Source: an uncultured Candidatus Berkelbacteria bacterium (GTDB lineage Bacteria; Patescibacteriota; UBA1384; UBA12157). From it: a DNA stretch of 64,000 nt. The stretch covers positions 86,054 through 150,053 of the forward strand of contig CAIRFN010000006.1 in the NCBI GenBank assembly GCA_903877885.1, written 5' to 3'. Below the pieces are notes generated by a model. The model saw only the letters and a program-made list of their open reading frames with translations. It ran no database searches and was not told where the DNA came from. Position numbers and translations under genes: made by a program. Below, in pieces: positions 7,309 through 61,346 of the stretch (position 1 is the stretch's first letter; each line of letters starts with the position of its first letter).

Positions 7309-7878
7309 ATGGGTGTATTAAAATATAAAGAATCGGCGCCAAATACATATTATCATTTGTATAATCGAGGGAATAAAAAGAAGGAAATTTTTCTTGATAA
7401 AACTGATTATCGAATTTATCTTAATCGGTTATTAAAAGCTAGTAAAAAATATAACTTTTCAATTATTGCTTATTGCCTAATGCCGAATCATTTCCATCTA
7501 ATTGTAAAGCAAAACGATTTATCCTCACCTGCGAATTTAATGGCATCAGTTAATACTAGCTACTCGATGATTTTTAATCTAAAATATAAAACAGTTGGTC
7601 ATTTATTTCAGGATCGATATAAGCAGAAAATAATCAAAGATGATCAATATATACTAAATTTAATTGCTTATATTCATTTTAATCCAGTTAATGATAAATT
7701 ATGCGTTTTCCCTAAAGAGTATTGTTGGAGTAGTTATCTGGAATATGCCGGGTTAGTGAAAAATTGGTTATGTGATAAACAGCTAATGGATAGTTTTAAT
7801 CTAAAAGGACAGTCCTTTGAGGATTATATTCGTTCGTCTTACGAAATCAGTCCGTATGATGCATTTGATCAAGATTAA
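7309..7878 (+). CDS. REP-associated tyrosine transposase (RAYT, IS200/IS605 Y1 HUH family)
   Basis: 'YHLYNRGNKKKEIF', HUH motif 'MPNHFHLIV', catalytic Tyr region 'AYIHFNPV'; flanked by REP hairpins. Confidence 0.8.
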   Translation: MGVLKYKESAPNTYYHLYNRGNKKKEIFLDKTDYRIYLNRLLKASKKYNFSIIAYCLMPNHFHLIVKQNDLSSPANLMASVNTSYSMIFNLKYKTVGHLFQDRYKQKIIKDDQYILNLIAYIHFNPVNDKLCVFPKEYCWSSYLEYAGLVKNWLCDKQLMDSFNLKGQSFEDYIRSSYEISPYDAFDQD

Positions 7879-21954: not shown

Positions 21955-22701
21955 ATGGTAGAATTAATTCACGGAGGAGAGTTGGATTTGAGAGAAAACA
22001 CATGTAATAACAAGAGAAATGTTTGTTACGTGGATGAAAATTTCTTTAAAAATTGGACGCCAGAAATGGCCTATGTTCTAGGATTTTTTGCAGCCGATGG
22101 TTGTTTAACAGTTAATCATAAAAGAGGAAATAAATATATTGAGTTTACTTCCACTGATTATGACATAATAGAAAAAATCAAAACTGCTTTAAAATCAGAT
22201 CATAAAATCGGGATCAGACTTGGTAAGAAAAATTGTAAAACCGCTTATAGATTGCAAATCGGTAGCAAGGAAATATTTGACGATTTGATAGCTTTAGGTT
22301 TTACTCCGACAAAAAGTTTGGTAATGAAATTTCCAATAATTCCTACAAGATATTTAGCACATTTTGTAAGAGGTTATTTTGATGGCGATGGTCATAGTAA
22401 TTTTTGCCGATTTTATAGAAAAGATCGTTTAACTTACGGTAAATTTCTTCAATCTGGTTTTACTTCTGGGAGCAAAATTTTTTTAGAAAAATTACAGTTG
22501 ATTTTAAAAGAGAATATCAATTTAAAATTAGGAACGTTATATTCTCATTCTGGTTTTAGATTAAATTACTCTTCAAAAGATAGTAAAAAATTATTTGATT
22601 TTATTTACAAAGATTGCAGTAACACAATATATTTAGTCAGAAAATATTTGAAATTTAAAAATGAAATAGAAAAATTTTGGGGTTGTAGCTCAGTTGGTTA
22701 G
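21955..22701 (+). CDS. LAGLIDADG homing endonuclease (two-motif, single chain)
   Basis: 'LGFFAADGCL' and 'RGYFDGDGH' motifs; 3' end overlaps tRNA-Asp by 23 nt. Confidence 0.7.
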   Translation: MVELIHGGELDLRENTCNNKRNVCYVDENFFKNWTPEMAYVLGFFAADGCLTVNHKRGNKYIEFTSTDYDIIEKIKTALKSDHKIGIRLGKKNCKTAYRLQIGSKEIFDDLIALGFTPTKSLVMKFPIIPTRYLAHFVRGYFDGDGHSNFCRFYRKDRLTYGKFLQSGFTSGSKIFLEKLQLILKENINLKLGTLYSHSGFRLNYSSKDSKKLFDFIYKDCSNTIYLVRKYLKFKNEIEKFWGCSSVG

Positions 22702-27220: not shown

Positions 27221-27268
27221 AAAATTGTCTTCCTTTTTCAGGGAAAAATTGCTATAATAAGTTAAATT

Positions 27269-27339
27269 GCAGATATGGTTTAGTGGCAGAACATATCCTT
27301 CCCAAGGATAGGATGCGGGTTCGATTCCCGCTATCTGCT
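27269..27339 (+). tRNA. tRNA-Gly(CCC)
   Basis: Acceptor GCAGATA/TATCTGC, anticodon loop TTCCCAA, T-loop GGTTCGATTCC. Confidence 0.85.
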
Positions 27340-27343
27340 CGGT

Positions 27344-27380
27344 GCCGATGTAGCTCAGGGGTAGAGCAACTCTTTCGAGA
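27344..27380 (+). other. tRNA 5' fragment (acceptor GCCGATG plus D-arm plus anticodon-region remnant), Thr-like
   Basis: 'GCCGATGTAGCTCAGGGGTAGAGCAACTCTTTCGAGAAG' is near-identical to the 5' half of the adjacent tRNA-Thr; no 3' half follows it. Confidence 0.5.
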
Positions 27381-27402
27381 AGTTACACTTTCTTTTTTCT
27401 TA

Positions 27403-27474
27403 GCCATCTTAGCTCAGTGGTAGAGCAACTCTTTCGTAAAGAGTAGGTCCCGAGTTCAAGTCTCGGAGATGGCT
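27403..27474 (+). tRNA. tRNA-Thr(CGT)
   Basis: Acceptor GCCATCT/AGATGGC, anticodon loop TTCGTAA, T-arm CCGAGTTCAAGTCTCGG. Confidence 0.85.
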
Positions 27475-27489
27475 CAGAAAAAAGAAAAA

Positions 27490-27526
27490 GAAGAGATCAG
27501 CGGTTCGAATCCGCTCATCGGCTCCA
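27490..27526 (+). other. tRNA 3' fragment (T-arm AGCGG-TTCGAAT-CCGCT, acceptor CATCGGC, T, CCA)
   Basis: Its 3' acceptor strand is perfectly complementary to the 5' fragment at 27344-27350. Confidence 0.5.
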
Positions 27527-27543
27527 AAATAAAATTATTCAAA

Positions 27544-27864
27544 ATGTTTCAAAGTATTTGGCGACAAATAAAATATTTTTTCGTAAATCCTTTCTGGCTT
27601 TCAGGAGCGGTTTTAATATTAATGGTTTTTGCCATTTTAATTAACGCTGCAATTTGGTATCTTTATATTAAGAACTATCGTGATTTAATCGGTATAGTTC
27701 AAATCGGTTATTCATCAGCAGTGCTAATCTTGAACATTTTGCTTGGTAATATTGTTTTTCGAAAAGAAAAACTAATTAGTATAATTTTATTAAGTGCCGG
27801 ATTAATTATTCAAATTCTATTTATTATATTTTTAAGATTCTTTGCAATGACTCAAGCATTTTAA
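27544..27864 (+). CDS. small membrane protein (ORF track start at 27469 overlaps the tRNA fragments; ATG at 27544 more plausible)
   Basis: Three hydrophobic segments. Confidence 0.35.
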   Translation: MFQSIWRQIKYFFVNPFWLSGAVLILMVFAILINAAIWYLYIKNYRDLIGIVQIGYSSAVLILNILLGNIVFRKEKLISIILLSAGLIIQILFIIFLRFFAMTQAF

Positions 27865-29376: not shown

Positions 29377-29559
29377 GTTGATTTATGGTTTGTTTTTTGC
29401 TATAATCAAATAGAATTTAATTTTAGATATTTATAAAACCCATGATTCATGCTTCATGATACATGATTCAATTTTTGTCGGGGATTGGTGCTTTACCTAA
29501 AGGCAGCTGGTTTACAGATGTCTGACGACATCATAGAGCGCCAAGTATTTTTTATCTGT

Positions 29560-29632
29560 CGGGGTGTGGCTCAGTTGGTAGAGCGCCGCTTTTGGGAAGC
29601 GGAGGTCGTGAGTTCGAGTCTCGCCACCCCGA
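29560..29632 (+). tRNA. tRNA-Pro(TGG)
   Basis: Acceptor CGGGGTG/CACCCCG, anticodon loop TTTGGGA, T-loop GTTCGAGTC. Embedded in a 19-bp extended flanking helix. Confidence 0.8.
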
Positions 29633-29652
29633 CAGATAAAAAATACAAATAT

Positions 29653-29716
29653 AGAGCGGAGGTTGTGACGATTACTTTGGTAATCGGATAGCGTTCGAGT
29701 CTCGCCACCCCGACCA
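29653..29716 (+). other. Partial duplicate of the tRNA-Pro 3' half with a 28-nt hairpin insertion, ending in CCA
   Basis: 'GAGCGGAGGT' plus insertion CGATTAC-tttg-GTAATCG plus 'GTTCGAGTCTCGCCACCCCGACCA'. Confidence 0.55.
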
Positions 29717-29833: not shown

Positions 29834-29969
29834 CCAAGTAAAATTCCTTTCTGTAAAATGGATTACATCCTATTCTTACAGAAACGTCATCACTTGGCAC
29901 AGCCAGATTGATAGAGAATTTTACGCAGTCCCGTGATCACCGCAGTGATTTTATGGGACAATTATCATT

Positions 29970-30042: not shown

Positions 30043-30127
30043 CCAAAATCAGGGGGTTCGCCTTTAGGTAAAGTATCCCTCCTGGGGCACCAAAAATTAT
30101 CAAATATTTATATTTAGAGAGGGAATC

Positions 30128-41251: not shown

Positions 41252-42715
41252 TTAAATTTTTCCGAGATCTAAAACATCATTAAATTTTATTTGGGCGACA
41301 AAGTCGGGCATGTGACTAACCATGATTACAGTACCGGAAAAATCATTAATAGCTTTGGCAATGACTGGCAAATGTCTAAAGTTGATGTGGTTAGTTGGTT
41401 CATCTAAAATCAAAAGTCCCGGTTGCATTAAAACGAGTCGAGCAAAACTCAAAAGTCCTTTTTGTCCTTCAGAGAGCTCACTGATTTTTCGGCCCATCAA
41501 ATCGCCAGTGATTAAAAAGCCGGCGGCGACCGATCGAAGTGTCTGTTCGTCAGTACCTTCAAGCAAAATTGAAGTTAAGGACTCAAAAACGGTTTGGTCA
41601 AAATCTAAATTGGAAAAATCTTGGCTGTAATAACCAACGCGAACTCCGTCTAAAATTTTAGCGTGTTCGTTTTTGCCACTGACCAAACTGCGTAAAAATG
41701 TGCTTTTGCCAACGCCGTTTGGACCAGCGACTAAAAGATGCATTTTCTTACGTAATTTAAGATCAACCTTTTTCATCTGTGGCTCGTGATTGCGAATGAC
41801 TTTGATGGCATCAATTTCCACAATATTACCAACAATGTCTTGGACTTCAATGTCAAAATTTCGAATGGTGCGATCTTCGCGACGGACATCCACCATATTT
41901 TCTTCCATATCGGCCGCTTCGTCTTTGAGTTTTTTAGCCAGCTGGCGCATTTTTCCACCTTTGTGGGCGAAAAAGTTAACCTTCTCTTTACGGTCGATAA
42001 TCGAACGGTGCAGTTGAGCATTTTTCATTTGTTCGCGCTCAATTCGCTTGGTGATTTCCAAGACGACGGAATAATAATCGCCAACATAGGTTTCAATTTT
42101 GTGAGTAAAATTATCCAAATAAATAACACCTTCGGTAAAACAATTCAAAAAGTCAGCGTCATGAGAAATCACAATCACGGTTTTTGGGTACATGACCAAA
42201 AATTCAATCAAATGGTCGATGCCGGCTTGATCTAAATTATTGGTCGGCTCGTCGAGTAATAAAATATCGGAATTTTGAATTAAGGCAAATGAAAGTAATA
42301 ATCGCGCTTGTTGACCACCGGAAAGTTCACCAACTTTTCGTTCGGTCGGGACATCTAAGTTAACCGCAGTCATCACCTTATACATTCGGCTTTGCAAATC
42401 ATTTGGAGTTTCGTCAAAGGCTTTGGTAAAATATTCGGTGACGGTTAAATCTAAATCTTCGCGAGCTACAACCTGACGGGCAGTCGCAATTGAAGCGTGA
42501 TTAGTGACGGAAACTTGACCGGCTTTAGGTTTTAATTCGCCAGTGATTAATTTAAATAGAGAACTTTTGCCAGCGCCATTTTGGCCCATCAAAGTAATTT
42601 TGGCTGATTGGCGCACCGAAAAACTAGCGCCACTTAAAATTGGCTTGTCATGAACATATTCAAAATCAACTTCGTCGAATCGTAAAATTACTTCTTCTGG
42701 CATGGTTTTTGTCAT
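41252..42715 (-). CDS. ABC-F family ATPase (tandem ABC domains, no TMD)
   Basis: Two Walker A sites (GQNGAGKSS, GPNGVGKST) and two signature motifs (LSGGQQAR, LSEGQKGL). Confidence 0.8.
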   Translation of the reverse strand: MTKTMPEEVILRFDEVDFEYVHDKPILSGASFSVRQSAKITLMGQNGAGKSSLFKLITGELKPKAGQVSVTNHASIATARQVVAREDLDLTVTEYFTKAFDETPNDLQSRMYKVMTAVNLDVPTERKVGELSGGQQARLLLSFALIQNSDILLLDEPTNNLDQAGIDHLIEFLVMYPKTVIVISHDADFLNCFTEGVIYLDNFTHKIETYVGDYYSVVLEITKRIEREQMKNAQLHRSIIDRKEKVNFFAHKGGKMRQLAKKLKDEAADMEENMVDVRREDRTIRNFDIEVQDIVGNIVEIDAIKVIRNHEPQMKKVDLKLRKKMHLLVAGPNGVGKSTFLRSLVSGKNEHAKILDGVRVGYYSQDFSNLDFDQTVFESLTSILLEGTDEQTLRSVAAGFLITGDLMGRKISELSEGQKGLLSFARLVLMQPGLLILDEPTNHINFRHLPVIAKAINDFSGTVIMVSHMPDFVAQIKFNDVLDLGKI

Positions 42716-42829
42716 TGCGATCCGCCGGCTGGCGGAGTGGCAATCCTTCAATTAAATAAAATGGCGTATTCTTTACGCCAATAAAAATAGTATATCATAA
42801 AAATCGTCGAAAGTCCAGCTTTAAGTAAT

Positions 42830-42863
42830 AAAAAACCGCTTATTGCTAAGCGGTCTGATTTTT
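42830..42863 (-). terminator. rho-independent terminator closing the radical-SAM operon
   Basis: Minus strand CCGCTTAGCAATAAGCGG followed by TTTTTT; overlaps the stop codon of 42846..43466. Confidence 0.55.
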
Positions 42864-43466
42864 ATTGAATGGTAGTTGTTCTAATAGCTGTTCGTGAATT
42901 TTAGTATGCCTCAACCAGATTATTTTTTTAATAATTAATGGTAATTTCTTGGTTTTTAAGAAGAAAAGATTCTGCCATGTTTGGGCTGAAATCATTTCTT
43001 CCAGATGACCTTGGATTAAATCAACTTGGTAGAAATTAGCAAAGCCAAACAAAGTTTCGGTGATTGAGCTAATACTGGCTCTAATCTCTGGTTCTGGTCC
43101 TGGTTCATCTTGATCGGCTAAGCGTCGAATTTTTTCACTTTGTTCGATCAGTGAGAAAAATCGAGTCAACGGGTCAAAACTTTCGGTGGAAACAATATTG
43201 ACAGTTTCCGGAAAATCTAACTCATTAATATAACAAAACCGAATCAAGACAAAGAGGATATCGGAAAGTTCATCGACTAATTTGTGTCGAGATTTTTGTC
43301 CATGGCGATATTTTTCCCAAATTGTCAGCATTCTTCCAAGCGAACCGATCTCTGTGACTAATTCCAAAAAAGTGGTGTCATTGGTCCAGATTCTCGGTTC
43401 AATCTTGTCAAAACCTTTGATCGTTGGGATCGAAGCTTCGATTAGTTGATCGATGTTAATGGTCAT
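42846..43466 (-). CDS. MazG-like all-alpha NTP pyrophosphohydrolase superfamily protein (divergent, tentative)
   Basis: 'W...FLELVTEIGSLGRMLTIWEKY...KLVDELSDILFVLIRFCYINELDF' resembles the MazG 'E.GEL...ELaDvl..l' pattern, but the first EExxE is degenerate. Confidence 0.4.
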   Translation of the reverse strand: MTINIDQLIEASIPTIKGFDKIEPRIWTNDTTFLELVTEIGSLGRMLTIWEKYRHGQKSRHKLVDELSDILFVLIRFCYINELDFPETVNIVSTESFDPLTRFFSLIEQSEKIRRLADQDEPGPEPEIRASISSITETLFGFANFYQVDLIQGHLEEMISAQTWQNLFFLKTKKLPLIIKKIIWLRHTKIHEQLLEQLPFNKNQTA

Positions 43467-44733
43467 TTTTTTCTCCTAACAAATCGACAAAGCAGTAAGG
43501 ATCTTCGCCATTTAGTTTGCCGGTGGCAAAATAGGCGCCGATTGGGCAGGTGCCAAAGCACTTTTTAGTCCAATATTGGCAAGAGAAACATTTTTCCGGT
43601 TTACAGGATTTAAGTTGGCGATAATTCTGCCAGGTTGGTGACTCGTGCCAGATTTTCAGCAGGCTTTCTTCAAGCAAATTACCAGCCACAAACAAGCTTT
43701 TTTCTAAGTCTGTTAGCAACTCCATTTTTTGGACTGGAGCGACTTCACAAGGAAAAACATTGCCTTGTGGTGAAACAAAAGCAAATTCTCGGCCCGCCGG
43801 ACAAGCGTGAATTCTGGGTACAATCGGGTGGGCCGGCAGATTTTCAGTGGACAATAAATCAAAATCCATTACCACTTTAGCTTTAGGATATTTTTTGCGC
43901 CAACCTTCAACCAGTCGATTGAATTCGAGTGTTTCGGCCGCGGTCAACATTTGCTTCTGAACTTCTTCATTGGCACCGCGGCCGAATGGCCTTGGATGAA
44001 TAAAATCGATCAAAAGTAAATCTAATTGCTGACAGAGTGCTAATAGTGGCTCGACTGATTGATAATTAAGACGGGACAAAACCGTGTTGATTCTGACTTT
44101 GGGAATTCCCGCCGCTTTCAAACGGCTGATTGTTGCCACAGTCTGGTCATACGATCCGCCGGGCCGGAAATTGTCATTAATCTTTTTCGGGCCGTCGAGC
44201 GAAATAATCACATCGTCGATTTGGCGTTTGCAAATTTCATGAGTTAATTCATCAGTCCAAACGCCATTACTGGCTAGGCTGGTGTAAAAACCCAATTCAA
44301 TGGCATAGTCCAAAATCTCCAAAAAGTCTGGTCGCATAGTTGGTTCTCCGCCAGTTAAACGCGCTTCGAACACGCCGACGCGATGCATCTCATCCAGAAC
44401 TTTTTTCCAGTCTTCGGTGGTCATTTCGTTTTCCAAGGCTTGACCCGCCCCGTTGTAACACATTTTGCAACGCAGGTTACATTTACGAGTTAAAACCAAG
44501 TAAAGGCGATTTGGTGCCATAATGGTTTGACTGGGATACACTCCTTGAAAAGTCTGGTGAGAGTCGCTGTTTGAATCTCCGGCTTGACAGAAAAAGCAGT
44601 TGTCTTGGTTTAGGAATGTTTCTGCCTCTTCGCTTGAGCAAGTGAAAAATCGGCGACTGACTGCATCAAATACAGTGAAATAGGAACTAATAGCCAGTTC
44701 TTGTCTGGCTCGATATCGTAGTTTACTCATCAT
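43456..44733 (-). CDS. Radical SAM / SPASM-domain enzyme with an ~85-aa N-terminal extension (RRE-like)
   Basis: 'CNLRCKMC' CX3CX2C; C-terminal Cys-rich SPASM ('CPAG...C...CFSCQYWTKKCFGTCP'). Confidence 0.8.
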   Translation of the reverse strand: MMSKLRYRARQELAISSYFTVFDAVSRRFFTCSSEEAETFLNQDNCFFCQAGDSNSDSHQTFQGVYPSQTIMAPNRLYLVLTRKCNLRCKMCYNGAGQALENEMTTEDWKKVLDEMHRVGVFEARLTGGEPTMRPDFLEILDYAIELGFYTSLASNGVWTDELTHEICKRQIDDVIISLDGPKKINDNFRPGGSYDQTVATISRLKAAGIPKVRINTVLSRLNYQSVEPLLALCQQLDLLLIDFIHPRPFGRGANEEVQKQMLTAAETLEFNRLVEGWRKKYPKAKVVMDFDLLSTENLPAHPIVPRIHACPAGREFAFVSPQGNVFPCEVAPVQKMELLTDLEKSLFVAGNLLEESLLKIWHESPTWQNYRQLKSCKPEKCFSCQYWTKKCFGTCPIGAYFATGKLNGEDPYCFVDLLGEKNDH

Positions 44734-45620
44734 ACGCTCACTTTCTCGAGTTGGTCGATAAACCAGGCCTCGAAGTCCAGCGCGGCCGAACTGCCGCTTT
44801 CCACTGCCACGTCCAGTAAATGATCTAAATACTGGTCGTAGGTTGTGGCATTGTATTCTTCCAGAGTTTTACAAAAACTCAAACCGAAAACTTCGGCCGC
44901 GCCAAATTTGAAATTGGCGTTGTTGGGAAAAGATTTAATCCGCGGTAAAACATAGGTGACTCCATTGTAAAACAACGGATTATACGGTCTGTCAATCTGG
45001 CATATAGTGTTAAAAACTTGGTTTTGACCGATTCGATCAATGGTGGAAATTTCCATAATTTGAATCGGAAAATCCAGTCGCCTGATGGTCAAATGCGGAT
45101 TAGTGTAGGCGATTCCAGTTATTTCGTTTTTAATTGCTGGTAAACCGTTTTCCACAAAAATTGATTGAGCGTGAAAATGAGGTTCAAAACTGGCGCCAGA
45201 ATTTTTCATATTGCAAAACACACTTGAACCGCATTGAGTTGAAAATTCTCTCAGAAATCGGAAGTCTTTGACTTTTGGATTCGGTCGATGCTCGTCAGTC
45301 AAAATTAAATAATGACAAATCGCCGAGCAACGGGGATGAAGCAGAAATGTCATATGATCGGATTTCGCGGTTTTAATTAAACCCGAGCCGGTTTCTTCCG
45401 GATCGCAGAGAAAACAGATTTGCTTACCGTTAGCGTCAAATTGTGGTATTGCTTGGGTTAAATACCATTTTTCAATATTTTGCGAATAAATTACGGTCAA
45501 ATATTGTCTTTTTGTCGGATCTTCTGGCCGCAAGATTTTGCGCTTGCAGACATCGTCTTTCATGGTTTGACCATGAACTTGTTCCCAGGTTTCGCGTAGA
45601 ACCGTATTTAAATCTGGCAT
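44730..45620 (-). CDS. GalT-family (HIT superfamily) nucleotidyltransferase/phosphorylase-like protein
   Basis: Zn-site-like 'QICFLCDPEE' and active-site-like 'SFEPHFHAQ' (compare GalT 'CFLC', 'SNPHPHGQ'); RBS GGGGGA before MPDLNTV. Confidence 0.6.
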   Translation of the reverse strand: MPDLNTVLRETWEQVHGQTMKDDVCKRKILRPEDPTKRQYLTVIYSQNIEKWYLTQAIPQFDANGKQICFLCDPEETGSGLIKTAKSDHMTFLLHPRCSAICHYLILTDEHRPNPKVKDFRFLREFSTQCGSSVFCNMKNSGASFEPHFHAQSIFVENGLPAIKNEITGIAYTNPHLTIRRLDFPIQIMEISTIDRIGQNQVFNTICQIDRPYNPLFYNGVTYVLPRIKSFPNNANFKFGAAEVFGLSFCKTLEEYNATTYDQYLDHLLDVAVESGSSAALDFEAWFIDQLEKVSV

Positions 45621-45746
45621 TTTCGTTTCCCCCTGATTGTTAAGGTATCTCATCCTGATTCCAATCTTCAATTTTAATTCAAGATTGGAATAAAAACCGG
45701 AGAACTTTGAAAGTCTCCGGATCTCTAAATTTACTTCAGAGATTGA

Positions 45747-47120
45747 TTAAAGATATTTTTTGTAGCAGTAAGGGTCCTGGCCATAGAGTTTGCTATTTTC
45801 GATTCGGCCACCGTTGGCAATAACCATTGCTCGGCATTTGCCTTCGCATTGCTTCATATAGAATCGACAACCGTGGCAACCGACCTTCTTGGTATTGCGG
45901 AAGTGTTCCATCGATGGGTGAAGCCAGGCTTCTTGAACTGAAGTATCGATTAAGTTCGGTCCTTTAAATTCCGGTTCATCCATCAGGAAACTGCAGGCGT
46001 TGACCGAGCCGTCAGGGCAAAGCCCAAAACCGGTTGAAAGCGCGCCGCAATCCGAATAATTGAATGGGTAAGGCAGCTCGCTTTTATCCGGGTAGTCGGG
46101 TGAGAAGCAATCCATGTTCTTGTGGATAATTTTGATACCCGATTCGCGGATGAACGTCGTTTCTCTTGTTTGTTGAACCGCTCGGCAAAATTCCATATAT
46201 TCCTCGGTGCTCAACATGGTGTCGGGAAGCCCCGTGGTACTGCGACCATATGGCCGCAGAGGCACAAAGTTCAGGTTATAACCATGCTGTGCGGCTAAAC
46301 TGGCGACATAAGGCATTTCTATTGCGTTATCGCGAGCTACGGTCATATTGATAGTGACACCGATGGTTTTCTGGTGACAACGGTTATAGTGATCCAGAAA
46401 ATCGAAAGTCCACATGATTTTGCTAAACGTGCCGAGATTGCGACGTTTGTCATTGGTTTCTTCAGTGCCTTCCAGGGAAATGATGACTTCGTCGACTCCG
46501 GCATCAGTAATATCTTTGGCTACTTGCTCGCTCCAACAGCCGTTGGTATTGAGCATCACGGCCATGCCTAAACTTTTGGCATAAGCAATAGCTTGGGGTA
46601 AGTCGTCGCAAGAAGTCGCTTCGCCGCCGGTAAAACGCCATTCCATGGTGCCAGCGAGATAAAATTTATCCATAATCTGCATTGTTTGTCCTAATGTTCG
46701 CCGGTGACTGTCAGCATTTTTGCTGGCCGCCAAACAACATTGGGGGCAATCCAGATTGCATTGTCGAGTGTAAGTGTCATAGACGCGAAGCGGGGCACTC
46801 AAACAATGTTGGGGGATAATTGGGTTTCGAACTAATCGGGTTTTGCCATTGTAAACACAGTTAACATAATCGTTATCCATGATTTCCAAGGCACCCATAT
46901 CCACAAAGCGCATAATTTCGGCGCGATCATAACCATATTTAATTAAATCTGGTATGTGTACGCCGTATGATCCGCAATGTTTAGTGATATGATCAGCTTG
47001 CAATATTTCCGCTACCATTTTATAGGTTCTGTCATCCAAAACATCGCAGCGGATTTTTTGAGCATCATGTAAGATGCCACCGAAATACTCTTTTCGAAGG
47101 GTAAAGCGCGTAGTTATCAT
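45747..47120 (-). CDS. Radical SAM / SPASM-domain enzyme with N-terminal RRE-like (PqqD-type) extension
   Basis: RBS AGGAGGTG before 'MITTRFTLRKEYFGGIL...'; 'CNLDCPQC' CX3CX2C; C-terminal SPASM cysteines. Confidence 0.8.
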   Translation of the reverse strand: MITTRFTLRKEYFGGILHDAQKIRCDVLDDRTYKMVAEILQADHITKHCGSYGVHIPDLIKYGYDRAEIMRFVDMGALEIMDNDYVNCVYNGKTRLVRNPIIPQHCLSAPLRVYDTYTRQCNLDCPQCCLAASKNADSHRRTLGQTMQIMDKFYLAGTMEWRFTGGEATSCDDLPQAIAYAKSLGMAVMLNTNGCWSEQVAKDITDAGVDEVIISLEGTEETNDKRRNLGTFSKIMWTFDFLDHYNRCHQKTIGVTINMTVARDNAIEMPYVASLAAQHGYNLNFVPLRPYGRSTTGLPDTMLSTEEYMEFCRAVQQTRETTFIRESGIKIIHKNMDCFSPDYPDKSELPYPFNYSDCGALSTGFGLCPDGSVNACSFLMDEPEFKGPNLIDTSVQEAWLHPSMEHFRNTKKVGCHGCRFYMKQCEGKCRAMVIANGGRIENSKLYGQDPYCYKKYL

Positions 47121-47130
47121 GGTCCACCTC

Positions 47131-48117
47131 CTACAGTGTCCAGTTCGGGTCTTTGGCAAAGAGTTTATCAATCAAGACTTGATAGCTGGAAAACCAGCTT
47201 TCTTTAGTCGCCAGGCAAATACCGCAACAAGCTAAGTCGGCATGGCCATCTAAACTTGATTGGCGAATCGCTTGGAATTTGTCGTTTTGCCAAATTCTGG
47301 CAATCGTCTGGTCAGGATCATTTAAATCTCCAACCAGATCGTGATCAGCCCAATCATTGAAACAAGCGTTAACTTGTCCCCAGGGATTGATGGAAAATCT
47401 TGTCCAAAGTTGTGCACAAGGCACAACTTTACTTCTGTCTTGATCGCCAATTGGCGCCAACCGTCCACCATAGGTATGGTAGGGACGAACAATTGTCATA
47501 TCGGCCAGCTTATTCCAGTAATTCAAAAAAGTTTCTTTCTCTTCCTGGAATTCCGGACAATCAACGGCCGAAACAATAATGCGGGTTTGATAACCACCGC
47601 TGTTACGCAACCGAATTAAATTAATGGCATTTTTAACTACCGTTTGAAAATAATTCGTGCCACGAAACTGTTGGTACAATTTTTCGCTAGCCGCATCAAT
47701 GCTTAATTCCAGTAGATCGATGCCAGTATCCAGAAGATTTCTGGCATAGGTGTCGTCCAAAAGGATTACATTGGTAAAACTAGTAACTCTTTTTACACCG
47801 GCTTTTTTGGCATACTTAGCCATATCAATGTAATGCGGGTGCATTAGTGGTTCGCCTCGGCCGTGAAAACGGAGAATTGACCACGGGTATTTTGCAATCT
47901 CGTCAGCGATTTTGGGAAAGAGTTTCCATGGAAAAAATGCCTTTTTCCGGGGATCGAATTCTCCAGTTTTATCTTGTCCCATTTGACCGCGGCGAGACAG
48001 TCCCACCGGGCATTTAAGACAATTGCTGTTGCAAATGTAATGCTCTAAAGCAATTTGAACGACAACAGGAAATTCCTGCTCTTCACTGGTTTGAAAACCA
48101 TAGCTGAAATCTTTCAT
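47131..48117 (-). CDS. Radical SAM enzyme with SPASM/twitch-like C-terminal cysteines, no N-terminal extension
   Basis: 'CNSNCLKC' CX3CX2C at residue ~28; C-terminal 'C...C...CCGIC'; RBS AAAGGAGG. Confidence 0.7.
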   Translation of the reverse strand: MKDFSYGFQTSEEQEFPVVVQIALEHYICNSNCLKCPVGLSRRGQMGQDKTGEFDPRKKAFFPWKLFPKIADEIAKYPWSILRFHGRGEPLMHPHYIDMAKYAKKAGVKRVTSFTNVILLDDTYARNLLDTGIDLLELSIDAASEKLYQQFRGTNYFQTVVKNAINLIRLRNSGGYQTRIIVSAVDCPEFQEEKETFLNYWNKLADMTIVRPYHTYGGRLAPIGDQDRSKVVPCAQLWTRFSINPWGQVNACFNDWADHDLVGDLNDPDQTIARIWQNDKFQAIRQSSLDGHADLACCGICLATKESWFSSYQVLIDKLFAKDPNWTL

Positions 48118-48128
48118 CTCAACCTCCT

Positions 48129-49406
48129 TTAGCGGTTGTCTGGTAACGTTTGGGCCCAGCTTCGTTGGAGTTTTCGCTCCATGGTCTCGATGACCAAATC
48201 ACGCCAAACCTCCACATCCTGTGGTGTAAAATATTCGGTTTGGACAACATAACAAGTGCTCCTGCCTCGACCGACTTGAATATATTTACTGTAATCGCGG
48301 TCAATTGTGGCGCCATATGCCTCGGGATTTTCCCAGACTGCTGTTCCCGGATAGGGAATAAACGGATAAACCACGAATTCATCAAACGGACAATTTTTTA
48401 ATCCTTCAATAGATTCGTAGATAGTTTCTTCTGTTTCACCAGGAAAACCAACCAGAATATAAATTCTAACTTTTAATCCGGCGGCTTTGGCGTTTTGAAT
48501 GGCTTTTAGATTAGTCTCGGCTCGAGTTTGTTTTCCCAAAATAGAAAGCATTTTATTAGACATACTTTCCACACCAATAGCGACATGACGACAACCACTT
48601 TGAGCTAACTGCTCGCAGGCGGTTGAGTTTAAGTTATTGGCTCTGGCAAAAACTCGATAGAGAATATCTAGCGGCGCAATTGCTTTGGTCATTTCGGTAA
48701 TACGATGCGGCGAAAAGGTAAATAAGTCATCACTAAAACGGAAATTGGTTGTGCCGAAATTCGCGTTTAAACTTTGAATTTCAGTGACAACATTTTCCGG
48801 TGAGCGAAATCTTAATTGACCTCGACTAAACACCAGGCTGTTACAAAATTTGCAATTGTATGGACAACCCCGGCTAGAAATCAAACTAATACTTGGTTTT
48901 GTCTCTACAATTCGATTGTAACTAGCTAAATCGGTCAAATCATAATTTGGAAAAGGTAATCGATCTAAATCCTGAAGTGGTTGACCAACTAAAATACCTT
49001 TGGCTAGATAGCCATTGGCTTTGTAATTGGTAATTACTTCAGGAAAAGTTTGATCAGCCTCGCCAGTAATAATTAAATCAAAATCTTTGGCCGATTCGAC
49101 AGCAAGCGCACTAACATGCGGCCCGCCAGCAATAGTTAAAGCTTGCGGGTTAATATTTTGCAATATTAAATTTTTTATTTCCAAAGTTCGCGCGTAAGTT
49201 ACCGAATAAGTCGAGAAAGCATAAATTTTAGCGGCAGGGATTTGTTCGAGCCACTTGGTTGAGTCGAGGCCTGACAGATCGCAGATCTGACAAGAAATGC
49301 CCATTTTTTGAACAAGAGTGGCCAGGTAAAGAATGCCGAGTGGCGCTTCAAGCCGATCGTCATTTAATTCCGGGCACGGTGTGTTGACGAAAACTACGTC
49401 ACGCAT
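48129..49406 (-). CDS. B12-binding-domain radical SAM enzyme (class B)
   Basis: N-terminal Rossmann-like B12-binding region; 'CPYNCKFC' CX3CX2C; RBS GGGGGA. Confidence 0.75.
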   Translation of the reverse strand: MRDVVFVNTPCPELNDDRLEAPLGILYLATLVQKMGISCQICDLSGLDSTKWLEQIPAAKIYAFSTYSVTYARTLEIKNLILQNINPQALTIAGGPHVSALAVESAKDFDLIITGEADQTFPEVITNYKANGYLAKGILVGQPLQDLDRLPFPNYDLTDLASYNRIVETKPSISLISSRGCPYNCKFCNSLVFSRGQLRFRSPENVVTEIQSLNANFGTTNFRFSDDLFTFSPHRITEMTKAIAPLDILYRVFARANNLNSTACEQLAQSGCRHVAIGVESMSNKMLSILGKQTRAETNLKAIQNAKAAGLKVRIYILVGFPGETEETIYESIEGLKNCPFDEFVVYPFIPYPGTAVWENPEAYGATIDRDYSKYIQVGRGRSTCYVVQTEYFTPQDVEVWRDLVIETMERKLQRSWAQTLPDNR

Positions 49407-56550: not shown

Positions 56551-56730
56551 TAATTTTAGCGAGTACGGGATTTACGGACAGCTCGGAAACCCACGGTTTT
56601 CCGACGTCCGGCATAAATGTCGGACTGCCTTCCTCTAGCGGTAAACCTCTGGTTTCCCGACCCCTTCCTGGTCCGAATCCCAAATCTACATTAAAGCAAA
56701 AAATTCACCGAAATGGTGAATCCTTTGCTT

Positions 56731-60986: not shown

Positions 60987-61017
60987 CCATTTAAAATTTT
61001 TACAACGAGGGCCGGCA

Positions 61018-61071
61018 TCCAGACCTCCGGTCATAACCAGACCTCCGGTCATAACCAGACCTCCGGTCATA
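61018..61071 (+). repeat. 18-bp tandem direct repeat x3 (CCAGACCTCCGGTCATAA) embedded in tRNA-Lys 5'-fragment copies
   Basis: Three contiguous units; the third ends ...CATAG and runs into a TAGCTCAGTGG D-arm copy. Confidence 0.7.
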
Positions 61072-61204
61072 GCTCAGTGGTATACAAATCTAGTATTCCG
61101 GTCATAGAGCAGCATATTAAAATATTTGGGCCAGTAGCTCAGTGGTATACAGACGCTTCCGCGTCATAGAGCATCGCCTCTTAAAATTTTCAATACAGTA
61201 TGGA

Positions 61205-61276
61205 GGGCCGGTAGCTCAGTGGTAGAGCAGCTGACTCTTAATCAGCTTGTCGTGAGTCCGATCCTCACCCGGCCCT
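61205..61276 (+). tRNA. tRNA-Lys(CTT)
   Basis: Acceptor GGGCCGG/CCGGCCC, anticodon stem GCTGA/TCAGC, loop CTCTTAA; CCA encoded. Confidence 0.85.
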
Positions 61277-61313
61277 CCATGGGGTGTTGAAAATTTCAGA
61301 CACGGGTAGCAAT

Positions 61314-61346
61314 TTGTCGTGAGTCCGATCCTCACCTGGCCCTCCA
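61314..61346 (+). other. Duplicate of the tRNA-Lys 3' end (33 nt, 1 mismatch) about 37 nt downstream of the gene
   Basis: 'TTGTCGTGAGTCCGATCCTCACCTGGCCCTCCA' against the tRNA '...CACCCGGCCCTCCA'. Confidence 0.6.

Follow-up and report, generated by a model that had tools for sequence, protein, structure and literature searches.

A tRNA-Thr(CGT) gene nested between the halves of a broken tRNA-Thr(CGT) gene in a Candidatus Berkelbacteria genome

Introduction

The intron-containing, split and permuted tRNAs of archaea and red algae are processed at bulge-helix-bulge motifs. In bacteria the only established interruptions of tRNA genes are, to our knowledge, group I introns, which are at least 200 nt long, have a conserved P1-P9 core and are exemplified by those of cyanobacterial tRNA-Leu(UAA) and tRNA-fMet; we know of no tRNA-splicing endonuclease in bacteria. 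Site-specific integration at tRNA genes leaves an intact hybrid tRNA and one partial copy, and the intervening sequences of bacterial rRNA genes are excised by RNase III without religation of the fragments. Here we describe a locus in 64 kb of DNA from an uncultured Candidatus Berkelbacteria bacterium (contig CAIRFN010000006.1; this whole stretch is referred to below as the window) in which an intact tRNA-Thr(CGT) gene, bracketed by two mutually complementary 12-nt strands, lies between the 5' and 3' halves of a second gene of the same type.

The locus resembles the disrupted tRNA genes of archaea and red algae in that the break is in or near the anticodon loop and the flanks are complementary, and interruptions of the D loop and T arm are found in both. 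It differs from them in that the host is bacterial, there is no bulge-helix-bulge and the insert is a whole tRNA of the same anticodon; furthermore, the outer gene of the window cannot be rejoined and decays in relatives. Group I introns share the position in the anticodon loop, but the 110 nt inserted in the window are nearly all tRNA and simple helix, with no match to an intron family in Rfam.

In spirit, the mobile-element model for Caldiarchaeum subterraneum comes nearest; it concerns a tRNA-Thr(GGU) 5' fragment and a recombinase element (1.8 kb; PMC3293823). There, as in duplications of attachment (att) sites, a tRNA is broken at the anticodon region, incoming DNA restores its function and orphan fragments are left behind, and tRNA-Thr is a recurrent target. 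In the present case, however, the incoming DNA is just ~100-110 bp long, has no recombinase and supplies a whole tRNA instead of a matching half; both old halves are kept, in a nested arrangement, and the flanks are unique and inverted, with no direct att repeats. Insertion sequences are abundant in the rRNA genes of the candidate phyla radiation (CPR), and RNase III-type removal has been proposed for the short ones (PMC11270868). These too are helix-forming inserts in stable-RNA genes, in the same radiation, and the flanking duplex is likewise a likely processing signal; a fragmented rRNA still works, whereas a tRNA host is intolerant of a nick in its anticodon loop, and the insert described here carries a functional product. 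In the searchable literature no account was found, for bacteria or CPR, of tRNA genes nested within others of the same anticodon, and the invasion and replacement of tRNA genes by nesting is apparently undescribed.

Results

Anatomy of the tRNA-Thr nest

The original prediction for this locus, made from the sequence with a list of its open reading frames (ORFs), described two tRNA pieces with complementary 7-nt acceptor strands around an intact tRNA-Thr(CGT). This arrangement was confirmed in the sequence, and the inner tRNA is called by both ARAGORN and Rfam (Table 1); the outer acceptor strands GCCGATG (27344-27350) and CATCGGC (27516-27522) are complementary at 7/7 positions. The near-identity that had been claimed between the 5' piece and the 5' half of tRNA-Thr is also borne out, with 26/27 positions identical to the inner tRNA over the D arm and anticodon stem (27351-27377). 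Over the whole 34-nt 5' half 29/34 positions are identical, and the mismatches are confined to the acceptor and D loop; the 3' piece matches the inner tRNA at 19/36 positions, and its T arm and acceptor strand differ. The proposed span of 27341-27526 is right at its end but begins too early, as it takes in 3 nt of spacer after the preceding tRNA-Gly. A further feature had been missed: two 12-nt strands, TTTCTTTTTTCT and AGAAAAAAGAAA, flank the inner tRNA and are perfectly complementary; they are here called the stalk.

The insert (27378-27487) is 110 bp long and consists of the 11-nt spacer, TTTCTTTTTTCT, TA, the inner tRNA, C and AGAAAAAAGAAA. The inner tRNA-Thr(CGT), in which CCA is not encoded, is presumed to be the working gene. 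Comparison was made with related Berkelbacteria loci, labelled L097, L099, L101, L104-L107, L208 and L209; in L106 and L208 an allele of the inner type is the plain resident tRNA-Thr(CGT). The left junction, where TTCG of the outer gene meets AGA of the insert, is common to the window, L101 (CTCTTTCGAGATCC) and L105 (TTTTTTCGAGATAA), and is kept though the broken allele differs, being X1 in the window and Y in L101 (alleles are defined below). On the right, the spacer that contains the 3' strand of the stalk trails Y-type tRNAs in five genomes, with homology in L099, L101, L104 and L105.

The RNA fold of 182 nt (27344-27525) has an energy of -67.4 kcal/mol (z = -5.1 against shuffles); in it the inner cloverleaf rests on the stalk, and both the T arm and the acceptor stem of the outer gene form. 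This fold, the match of the 3' piece to tRNA-Thr genes elsewhere and the long inverted repeat around the inner tRNA (both below) exceed what chance would give. Over 280 nt the sequence is identical in ENA ERZ18625396 and Logan ERR4193247, which are independent assemblies from different sources, and the locus is therefore not an assembly artefact.

Table 1. Positions in the 64-kb window of the tRNA-Thr nest, its neighbours and the other tRNA relics.
Feature	Position	Strand	Remarks
Extended -10 promoter element (likely)	27250..27258	+	TGCTATAAT; inferred, read from sequence; for the tRNA-Gly/Thr transcription unit
tRNA-Gly(CCC), uninterrupted	27269..27340	+	Allele GCAGATA; ARAGORN; Rfam 69.1 bits
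Outer tRNA-Thr(CGT)-type gene, 5' half	27344..27377	+	GCCGATG TA GCTC AGGGGTA GAGC A ACTCT TTCG; acceptor GCCGATG, whole D arm, anticodon-stem 5' strand, loop 32-35 (TTCG)
11-nt spacer, 5' end of insert	27378..27388	+	AGAAGTTACAC
Stalk, 5' strand	27389..27400	+	TTTCTTTTTTCT; 12/12 complementary to 27476-27487; paired in minimum-free-energy and centroid folds
Inner tRNA-Thr(CGT), intact	27403..27474	+	Allele Y (GCCATCT…AGATGGC T); ARAGORN; Rfam 70.2 bits
Stalk, 3' strand	27476..27487	+	AGAAAAAAGAAA; within spacer C[A/T][A/G][A/G]A..GAAAAAG
Outer gene, 3' half	27488..27526	+	AA AGAAG AGATC AGCGG TTCGAAT CCGCT CATCGGC T CCA; loop 37-38 (AA), stem strand AGAAG, variable loop AGATC, T arm, acceptor, discriminator T, CCA
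Small membrane-protein ORF	27544..27864	+	Syntenic, conserved in all relatives; starts 18 nt past the relic CCA
tRNA-Pro(TGG) nest	29560-29633		Between pieces 29479-29542 and 29653-29716; flanks TATTTTTTATCT/AGATAAAAAATA, 12/12 paired
tRNA-Arg(TCT) 3' relic	30052-30092		Other allele (acceptor CTGGGGC as in L097); directly after intact gene
tRNA-Glu(TTC) 3' fragment, 17 nt	56556-56572	-	15/17 match; ~160 nt downstream of intact gene
tRNA-Lys(CTT) nest	61205-61279		Two stacked 5' pieces 61009-61113 and 61128-61184; 3' piece 61314-61346
Small insertions in relics	29491-29503, 29515-29535, 29668-29692, 61018-61071, 61150-61168		Also in L099, L101, L104, L209

The outer gene is a broken homologue of tRNA-Thr(CGT)

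An exact scan of one genome per species for the 22 nt that precede CCA in the 3' piece found them in 90 other stretches of bacterial genomes. For 71 of these the match is the 3' end of a tRNA-Thr called by ARAGORN, about 62 of them with anticodon CGT; therefore, the outer gene is a homologue of tRNA-Thr(CGT) that is broken after position 35 (TTCG). Some 14 further stretches hold an orphan 3' part alone, beginning TTCGTAA, the mark usually left by integrative elements with a target in the tRNA-Thr(CGT) anticodon loop.

The anticodon base T36 is absent from both sides of the insert in the window. Five exon joins made by hand were called by ARAGORN as Phe(GAA), Tyr(GTA), Leu(GAG) or undetermined, and none as a canonical tRNA-Thr; when a T was added to the join by hand, two of the five anticodon-stem pairs still failed. 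The earlier remark that the pieces do not fold into a canonical anticodon stem thus agrees with our finding that no tested join restores one. ARAGORN with introns, a check that had been recommended, returned only a forced Leu(CAG) with a 98-nt intron, a mismatched anticodon stem and a 3' end borrowed from the inner tRNA, and this call was rejected. A bulge-helix-bulge, with 3-nt bulges on either side of a 4-bp helix, is absent from the fold of 27344-27525, where the boundaries of the insert fall in unpaired stretches of 11 and ~11 nt beside a plain 12-bp helix, and manual checks of the L097 and L209 junctions found no 4-bp central helix. Rfam detected no intron or ribozyme family in the window, either at the gathering threshold or at E ≤ 10, and reported no partial tRNA at a relaxed threshold; YrlA-like hits were weak (30 bits against a cut-off of 69), reflect merely tRNA-plus-stem shapes and were set aside. 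Among the scanned window proteins (64 kb of the genome) there was no Pfam match to the EndA or RtcB families. The window encodes BipA/TypA, and the organism is bacterial.

Given the missing T36, the lack of a canonical junction, of a bulge-helix-bulge and of any intron or ribozyme, and the bacterial host, the suggestion that this might be a functional permuted or intron-containing tRNA is not supported. The order of parts (5' half, insert, 3' half) is not that of a permuted tRNA, nor is the locus a split tRNA of the Nanoarchaeum type, as the halves are 110 nt apart on one strand with one promoter-like element, before tRNA-Gly. An intron of the archaeal/eukaryal type does not fit a site with no bulge-helix-bulge and with exons that are not restorable, and a group I intron does not fit an insert of 110 nt, against at least 200 nt, that has no ribozyme core. 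The pieces are also not an att remnant; they are complementary halves with no direct repeat, and there is no integrase within ~19 kb. What the outer gene does possess are the hallmarks of a tRNA relic, namely tRNA homology, disabling lesions (the 110-bp interruption, the missing T36 and the mismatched anticodon-stem pairs) and an intact same-anticodon paralogue. For the window locus, function of the outer gene as a split or intron-containing tRNA is rejected.

An empty site, a filled site and other nests

The tRNA-Gly(CCC) genes of the window and of L097 are an empty-site/filled-site pair. When the outer halves of the L097 gene are joined they are identical to the uninterrupted window gene at 69/71 positions, and the two differences form a compensatory 27:43 pair. 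In L097 the halves are parted by a 101-bp cassette placed exactly between positions 37 and 38 and, unlike the window tRNA-Thr, the outer gene becomes canonical once the 101 nt are removed. This comparison was directly pairwise, as MAFFT had aligned the window gene to the inner copy. A cassette of the L097 type sits in a different resident allele (GCGGGTG…) in L104, where the inner allele is GCGGGAT and the flanks are TGATTTyyCAGA/TCTGrrAAATCA. By analogy, the tRNA-Thr nest itself would also have arisen by filling of an empty site.

Nests reach three layers, with the same anticodon throughout. Besides those of tRNA-Gly(CCC) in L097 and L104, the relatives have a three-layer tRNA-Pro nest (L099) and a tRNA-Gly(TCC) nest that is split between positions 35 and 36 and has a flank helix of ~17 bp (L209). 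In the window there are nests of tRNA-Pro(TGG) and tRNA-Lys(CTT). The 5' piece of the former is of the CGGGGAT allele and has two small insertions; its 3' piece has a hairpin plus GATAGC inserted in the T stem. Since the 3' acceptor, CACCCCG, is that of the inner gene and not of the 5' piece, the two pieces come from different layers. The outer acceptor of the tRNA-Lys nest (GGGCCAG/CTGGCCC) is one compensatory pair apart from the inner (GGGCCGG/CCGGCCC), and the outermost 5' piece has three tandem 18-nt hairpin units, TAACCAGACCTCCGGTCA, between the acceptor and D arm. The tRNA-Glu fragment on the minus strand may be another relic. Between tRNA-Gly(TCC) and tRNA-Arg(TCT) lies a 9-bp hairpin with a 19-nt loop (TTTCTGTAA … TTACAGAAA, 29848-29884), which may be a stalk without its tRNA, or a regulatory hairpin.

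Thr(CGT) alleles are layered differently in related genomes

Relatives were reached through homologues, at 62-87% identity, of GT2, a glycosyltransferase that the window encodes just downstream of the locus; the near relatives of GT2 are named Candidatus Berkelbacteria by the sources. The cluster of tRNA-Gly(CCC) and tRNA-Thr(CGT), the small ORF, GT2 and tRNA-Pro, tRNA-Gly(TCC) and tRNA-Arg(TCT) is syntenic in ten Berkelbacteria loci, each of which has exactly one intact copy of each cluster tRNA. Alleles of tRNA-Thr(CGT) were classed by acceptor stem and T arm: X1 has the acceptor GCCGATG / CATCGGC and the T arm (A/G)GCGG…CCGC(T/C); X2 has GCCGATA / (C/T)ATCGGC and GCCAG…CTGGY; Y has GCC(A/G)(T/C)CT / AG(A/G)(T/C)GGC and CCGAG…CTCGG; and Z has GCC(A/G)ATG / CAT(T/C)GGC and GGCAG…CTGCC.

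With layers given from outermost to innermost, the window is X1 > Y. So is L105, where the 5' piece is truncated and has no acceptor and the anticodon-stem halves are not complementary. L099 is X1 > Y > Z, L101 is X2' > Y > X2, and L104 is Z > X2 > Y with 3' pieces only, the 5' pieces having been lost. Plain genes with no layering are found in L097 and L107 (Z alone), in L106 and L208 (Y alone) and in L209 (another allele alone). The relics of L099 and L104 have insertions of 24-65 nt in the T arm, and in the outer Gly of L104 the anticodon has changed from CCC to CCA and the 3' part is truncated. It is clear from this comparison that the outer pieces are dispensable and decaying, that the newest copy always lies inside the previous one, and that the order in which the alleles were swapped varies between lineages. 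No uninterrupted X1 allele of tRNA-Thr was found among the compared loci, and a metagenome scan with the conserved 3' spacer pattern gave no contig beyond that of L101.

These results bear on three ideas in the original prediction. A tRNA-in-tRNA insertion is supported, both because the two pieces come from the halves of a single Thr(CGT)-type gene and by the filled and empty Gly(CCC) sites, and the other nests extend it to a pattern across the lineage. A duplication scar is right in so far as the outer halves are leftovers; the inner gene is no local duplicate, because its acceptor stem and T arm differ and mark it as a different allele. Finally, it had been proposed that ordinary tRNA genes without the pieces in related genomes would point to a local rearrangement artefact, and on this the outcome was mixed: five relatives have a plain tRNA-Thr(CGT) without the pieces, and four have pieces that are partly decayed and in other arrangements.

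Flank helices

Together the stalk and the inner acceptor stem of the tRNA-Thr nest form a 21-nt inverted repeat (95%; I4), which ranks fourth in length among the inverted repeats of the 64 kb that fall within 140 nt; its equivalents at tRNA-Lys and tRNA-Pro rank second and third. Leader-trailer duplex energies were compared for 65 tRNAs in these loci, and the nested tRNAs gave the strongest values: -34.1 kcal/mol for L209 Gly, -23.6 for L097 Gly, -23.3 for L099 Pro, -17.2 for L104 Gly, -14.6 for window Lys and -13.6 for window Pro, against mostly -2 to -8 kcal/mol for plain tRNAs; window Thr scores -11.3 kcal/mol. The helices are perfect over 10-12 bp in six nests and in several they extend the acceptor stem unbroken, with the discriminator paired and no CCA encoded in the inner tRNA.

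The sequence of the flanks is different in every nest, and they are therefore not terminal repeats of the transposase type; nor do the nests qualify as miniature inverted-repeat transposable elements or other transposase-mobilised elements, as flank sequences are not conserved among copies and there is no consistent target-site duplication. The pairing is kept while the sequence changes: the Gly stalks of L097 and L104 differ by a double compensatory change (CC/GG to TT/AA), and the Pro stalks of the window and L099 by two compensatory pairs. By analogy with the rRNA intervening sequences that RNase III cleaves, the helix would act at the RNA level, where it would insulate the inner tRNA from the homologous outer half and provide a double-stranded processing stalk.

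Small structured insertions in the relics

Three families of short structured insertions were found only in tRNA relics, at fixed tRNA positions, in several tRNA species and genomes. The D-loop family, (T)ACA-GAC…GTC-A(TA), separates the D loop from the D-stem 3' strand in the Lys and Pro relics of the window and the Thr and Pro relics of L099; the insertion at 61018-61071 comprises three tandem 18-nt copies. The T-stem family, CGATT…AATCG followed by GATAGC, lies between T-stem positions 52 and 53 in the Pro relic of the window and the Thr relics of L099, L101 and L104. The T-loop family is a 14-mer, CCTTTAGGTAAAG(C/T), usually found directly after TTCG of the T loop in the window Arg, L099 Pro and L104 Gly(TCC) relics; the window copy is CCTTTAGGTAAAGT, and the other two end in C. 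Variants of the 14-mer are present in the Thr and Gly(CCC) relics of L104 and in L099, and one reversed copy is in the D stem of the window Pro relic. The Thr cassettes also lie directly after a TTCG, that of the anticodon loop. The stems of the small insertions covary. They are too regular for random decay, and may arise, without cargo, from the process of cassette insertion.

Neighbouring genes, candidate enzymes and mobile DNA

The window has 11 ordinary tRNA genes, by ARAGORN and by Rfam alike. A (TTTG)CTATAAT-like motif similar to the promoter element in Table 1 is also found 5' of tRNA-Gly(CCC) in L097, L104, L107 and L208; a two-hexamer promoter scan made no call at the element, because there is no -35 match. 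The small membrane-protein ORF is probably co-transcribed with the tRNA unit, and no terminator was found between the relic and this ORF. Public assemblies annotate instead a 131-aa ORF that starts inside the inner tRNA-Thr (27469-27864); the most likely start of the conserved protein is the ATG at 27544.

Within ~19 kb of the tRNA-Thr nest there are no genes of integrases, transposons or phages. Further off, a RAYT-like HUH transposase gene (7309-7878) matches Pfam Y1_Tnp and scores 70 bits with NCBIfam REP_Tyr_transpos, for which the cut-off is 80; it and the two following ORFs are flanked by six copies of a palindrome, AAGGACTGTCCTT, between 7244 and 8920. This looks like a repetitive extragenic palindrome (REP)/RAYT system in a CPR genome. 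The small insertions resemble REPs in being short palindromic hairpins with conserved ends and covarying stems that are sometimes in tandem, and a RAYT-like gene is present in the window; but AAGGACTGTCCTT is unlike the tRNA-associated hairpins and absent from tRNA loci, whereas the tRNA hairpins are found only inside relics. RAYT-type REPs were therefore discarded as the source of the relic hairpins.

A free-standing LAGLIDADG ORF (21955-22701, 248 aa) lies between a rotamase gene and tRNA-Asp, its last codons overlapping the 5' end of tRNA-Asp; it is absent from the corresponding position in L107, and a search for a tRNA-Asp relic around it found none. In L105 (51-1406) and L106 (1-360) there are large serine recombinase genes 1-2 kb upstream of the Asp/Gly/Thr tRNA cluster, accompanied in L106 by AbiEii-type genes. 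The region upstream of this cluster seems to be a hotspot for mobile DNA. Scans of viral contigs with the T-stem motif AATCGGATAGCRTTC and with TTCGCCTTTAGGTAAAG gave only chance matches, in coding-like contexts, and so no phage link. Elsewhere in the window, the minus strand of 41252-49406 encodes four radical SAM proteins (three SPASM and one B12-binding) and an ABC ATPase, which suggests a peptide-modification locus.

Discussion

We consider it probable (about 0.7) that the outer pieces do not decode and are what is left of a resident gene that was disrupted by a cassette bearing its replacement. The resident, an X1 allele of tRNA-Thr(CGT), would have been broken in the anticodon loop, after TTCG at position 35, by a 110-bp cassette made up of a whole tRNA-Thr(CGT) of allele Y between mutually pairing flanks, and presumably only the inner tRNA now decodes ACG. 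A primary transcript would start at the promoter ahead of tRNA-Gly, and the flank helix would stack on the inner acceptor stem to give a near-continuous duplex of ~20 bp that keeps the inner tRNA apart from the near-identical outer 5' half. This duplex is probably a stalk for double-strand-specific (RNase III-like) processing; after its cleavage RNase P, 3' trimming and CCA addition would complete the inner tRNA, and the outer halves would be by-products. The layering among relatives suggests repeated, site-directed invasion of the currently intact copy by tRNA alleles exchanged among Berkelbacteria.

Several observations sit uneasily with this account. In the window the outer gene has no flaw in its acceptor stem, D arm, T arm or CCA, a better state than one would expect of an old pseudogene, which means either that the event is recent or that some selection remains. 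The T stems of X-type relics are AGCGG/CCGCT in the window but GGCGG/CCGCC in L105, a difference made up of compensatory pairs, which calls for independent invasions or for selection on the relic. The energy of the window Thr stalk is unexceptional against composition-matched shuffles (z = -1.0), because it pairs poly-pyrimidine with poly-purine. The small hairpin insertions are structured and position-specific, which is unlike random decay. The expression and processing of the nest are wholly deduced from sequence, and neither the window nor the ten related loci identified a donor, an enzyme or a mechanism for the insertion. The same window and loci set the scope of the survey, which leaves room for an essential tRNA that exists only in interrupted form.

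Alternatively, the outer halves, although non-decoding, might be kept as an RNA processing scaffold that separates tRNA-Gly and the downstream mRNA from the Thr unit, the tRNA-like acceptor/D/T domain acting as a punctuation signal for RNase P and 3' processing. The acceptor, D and T arms are perfect while the anticodon arm is damaged, the relic T stems of the window and L105 differ by compensatory pairs, and the unit is compact, with a gap to tRNA-Gly given as 4 nt, 18 nt from the relic CCA to the next ORF and no terminator. However, the relics of close relatives have large T-arm or D-loop insertions or lack one half, and L106, L107, L097, L208 and L209 have no relic at the same syntenic position; we regard a scaffold as unlikely. 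It is more doubtful still that the outer gene is a functional intron-containing tRNA, from which the 110-nt insert is removed and the exons ligated to give two tRNAs per transcript. In its favour, the outer gene keeps its acceptor stem, D arm, T arm and CCA intact, the outer Gly(CCC) of L097 is canonical after removal of 101 nt at the classical position between 37 and 38, and the stalk could keep the two halves in contact, as happens in archaeal split tRNAs. Yet neither CGT nor a sound anticodon stem is regained at any junction in the window, there is neither a bulge-helix-bulge nor a match to a group I or II intron or ribozyme, and bacteria have no tRNA-splicing endonuclease that we know of; furthermore, the outer gene would be redundant, always duplicating the inner anticodon, and its pieces have been cut short or broken up in L099, L104 and L105, while five relatives have none. 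Its chances are therefore very small.

That tRNA-Thr(CGT) is a frequent target of integration, with ~14 genomes carrying the orphan TTCGTAA 3' part that att duplications predict, raises the alternative that the pieces are att remnants of an integrase-borne element that targeted this anticodon loop and was later mostly deleted. The window is broken in the same loop, and both L105 and L106 encode large serine recombinases at 1-2 kb from the cluster. Such an element would leave a hybrid tRNA and a partial copy, not two halves around a whole foreign tRNA; the insert is just 110 bp with no att-like direct repeat, no integrase is near the nest in the window, and the flanks are inverted, not direct, and differ in sequence in every nest. 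This origin is hardly to be credited. Least probable of all, to the point of being negligible, is that assembly fused two strain variants of the tRNA-Thr gene into a chimera. With metagenomic data such as these, a de Bruijn assembler might be misled by the 27-nt near-identical block, but the locus is identical across independent assemblies from different pipelines and samples, and diverged homologous nests with compensatory changes occur in other metagenome-assembled genomes and contigs, one of them a metagenome-assembled genome from NCBI. Two simple recombinational routes to a nest were also rejected: tandem duplication followed by deletion requires two independent deletions per nest, and a Campbell-type single crossover predicts the order A5'-B3'…B5'-A3', where A5'-B-A3' is seen; both leave the inverted flanks unexplained.

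If the outer pieces are indeed leftovers of a disrupted resident gene, a more tentative proposal, to which we give rather less than an even chance, is that the cassettes are a distinct kind of minimal non-autonomous mobile element, of ~100-110 bp, consisting of a tRNA gene and a self-complementary stalk. Such a cassette would home into the loops of a resident gene of the same isoacceptor, destroying and replacing its function at once, so that an essential single-copy gene could be invaded without cost. Successive hits on the innermost intact copy would build up Russian-doll layers, with an allele order that varies by lineage. The small D-loop, T-stem and T-loop hairpins might be cargo-less relatives from the same process; TTCG is directly 5' of both the T-loop insertions and the Thr cassettes. 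The enzyme could be one that acts on tRNA genes folded as single-stranded DNA (HUH-type or otherwise structure-specific); alternatively, a free-standing homing endonuclease could drive repair from the filled allele.

For annotation, the finding means that gene finders report the inner tRNA only, that 100-300 nt of 'intergenic' sequence are really tRNA relic, and that ORF callers begin spurious genes in relic sequence, as in the 131-aa call from 27469. The origin of the introns, split genes and fragments found in tRNA genes has so far been argued mainly from archaeal data, and the empty site, the fresh nest, the decayed nest and the triple nest described here are natural snapshots that bear on how disrupted tRNA genes arise. 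A stalk that continues the acceptor stem implies a double-strand-dependent step in tRNA maturation in these bacteria. If the pattern holds genome-wide, nested invasion would be the way in which the tRNA genes of Berkelbacteria turn over, in place of ordinary duplication, loss or homologous replacement.

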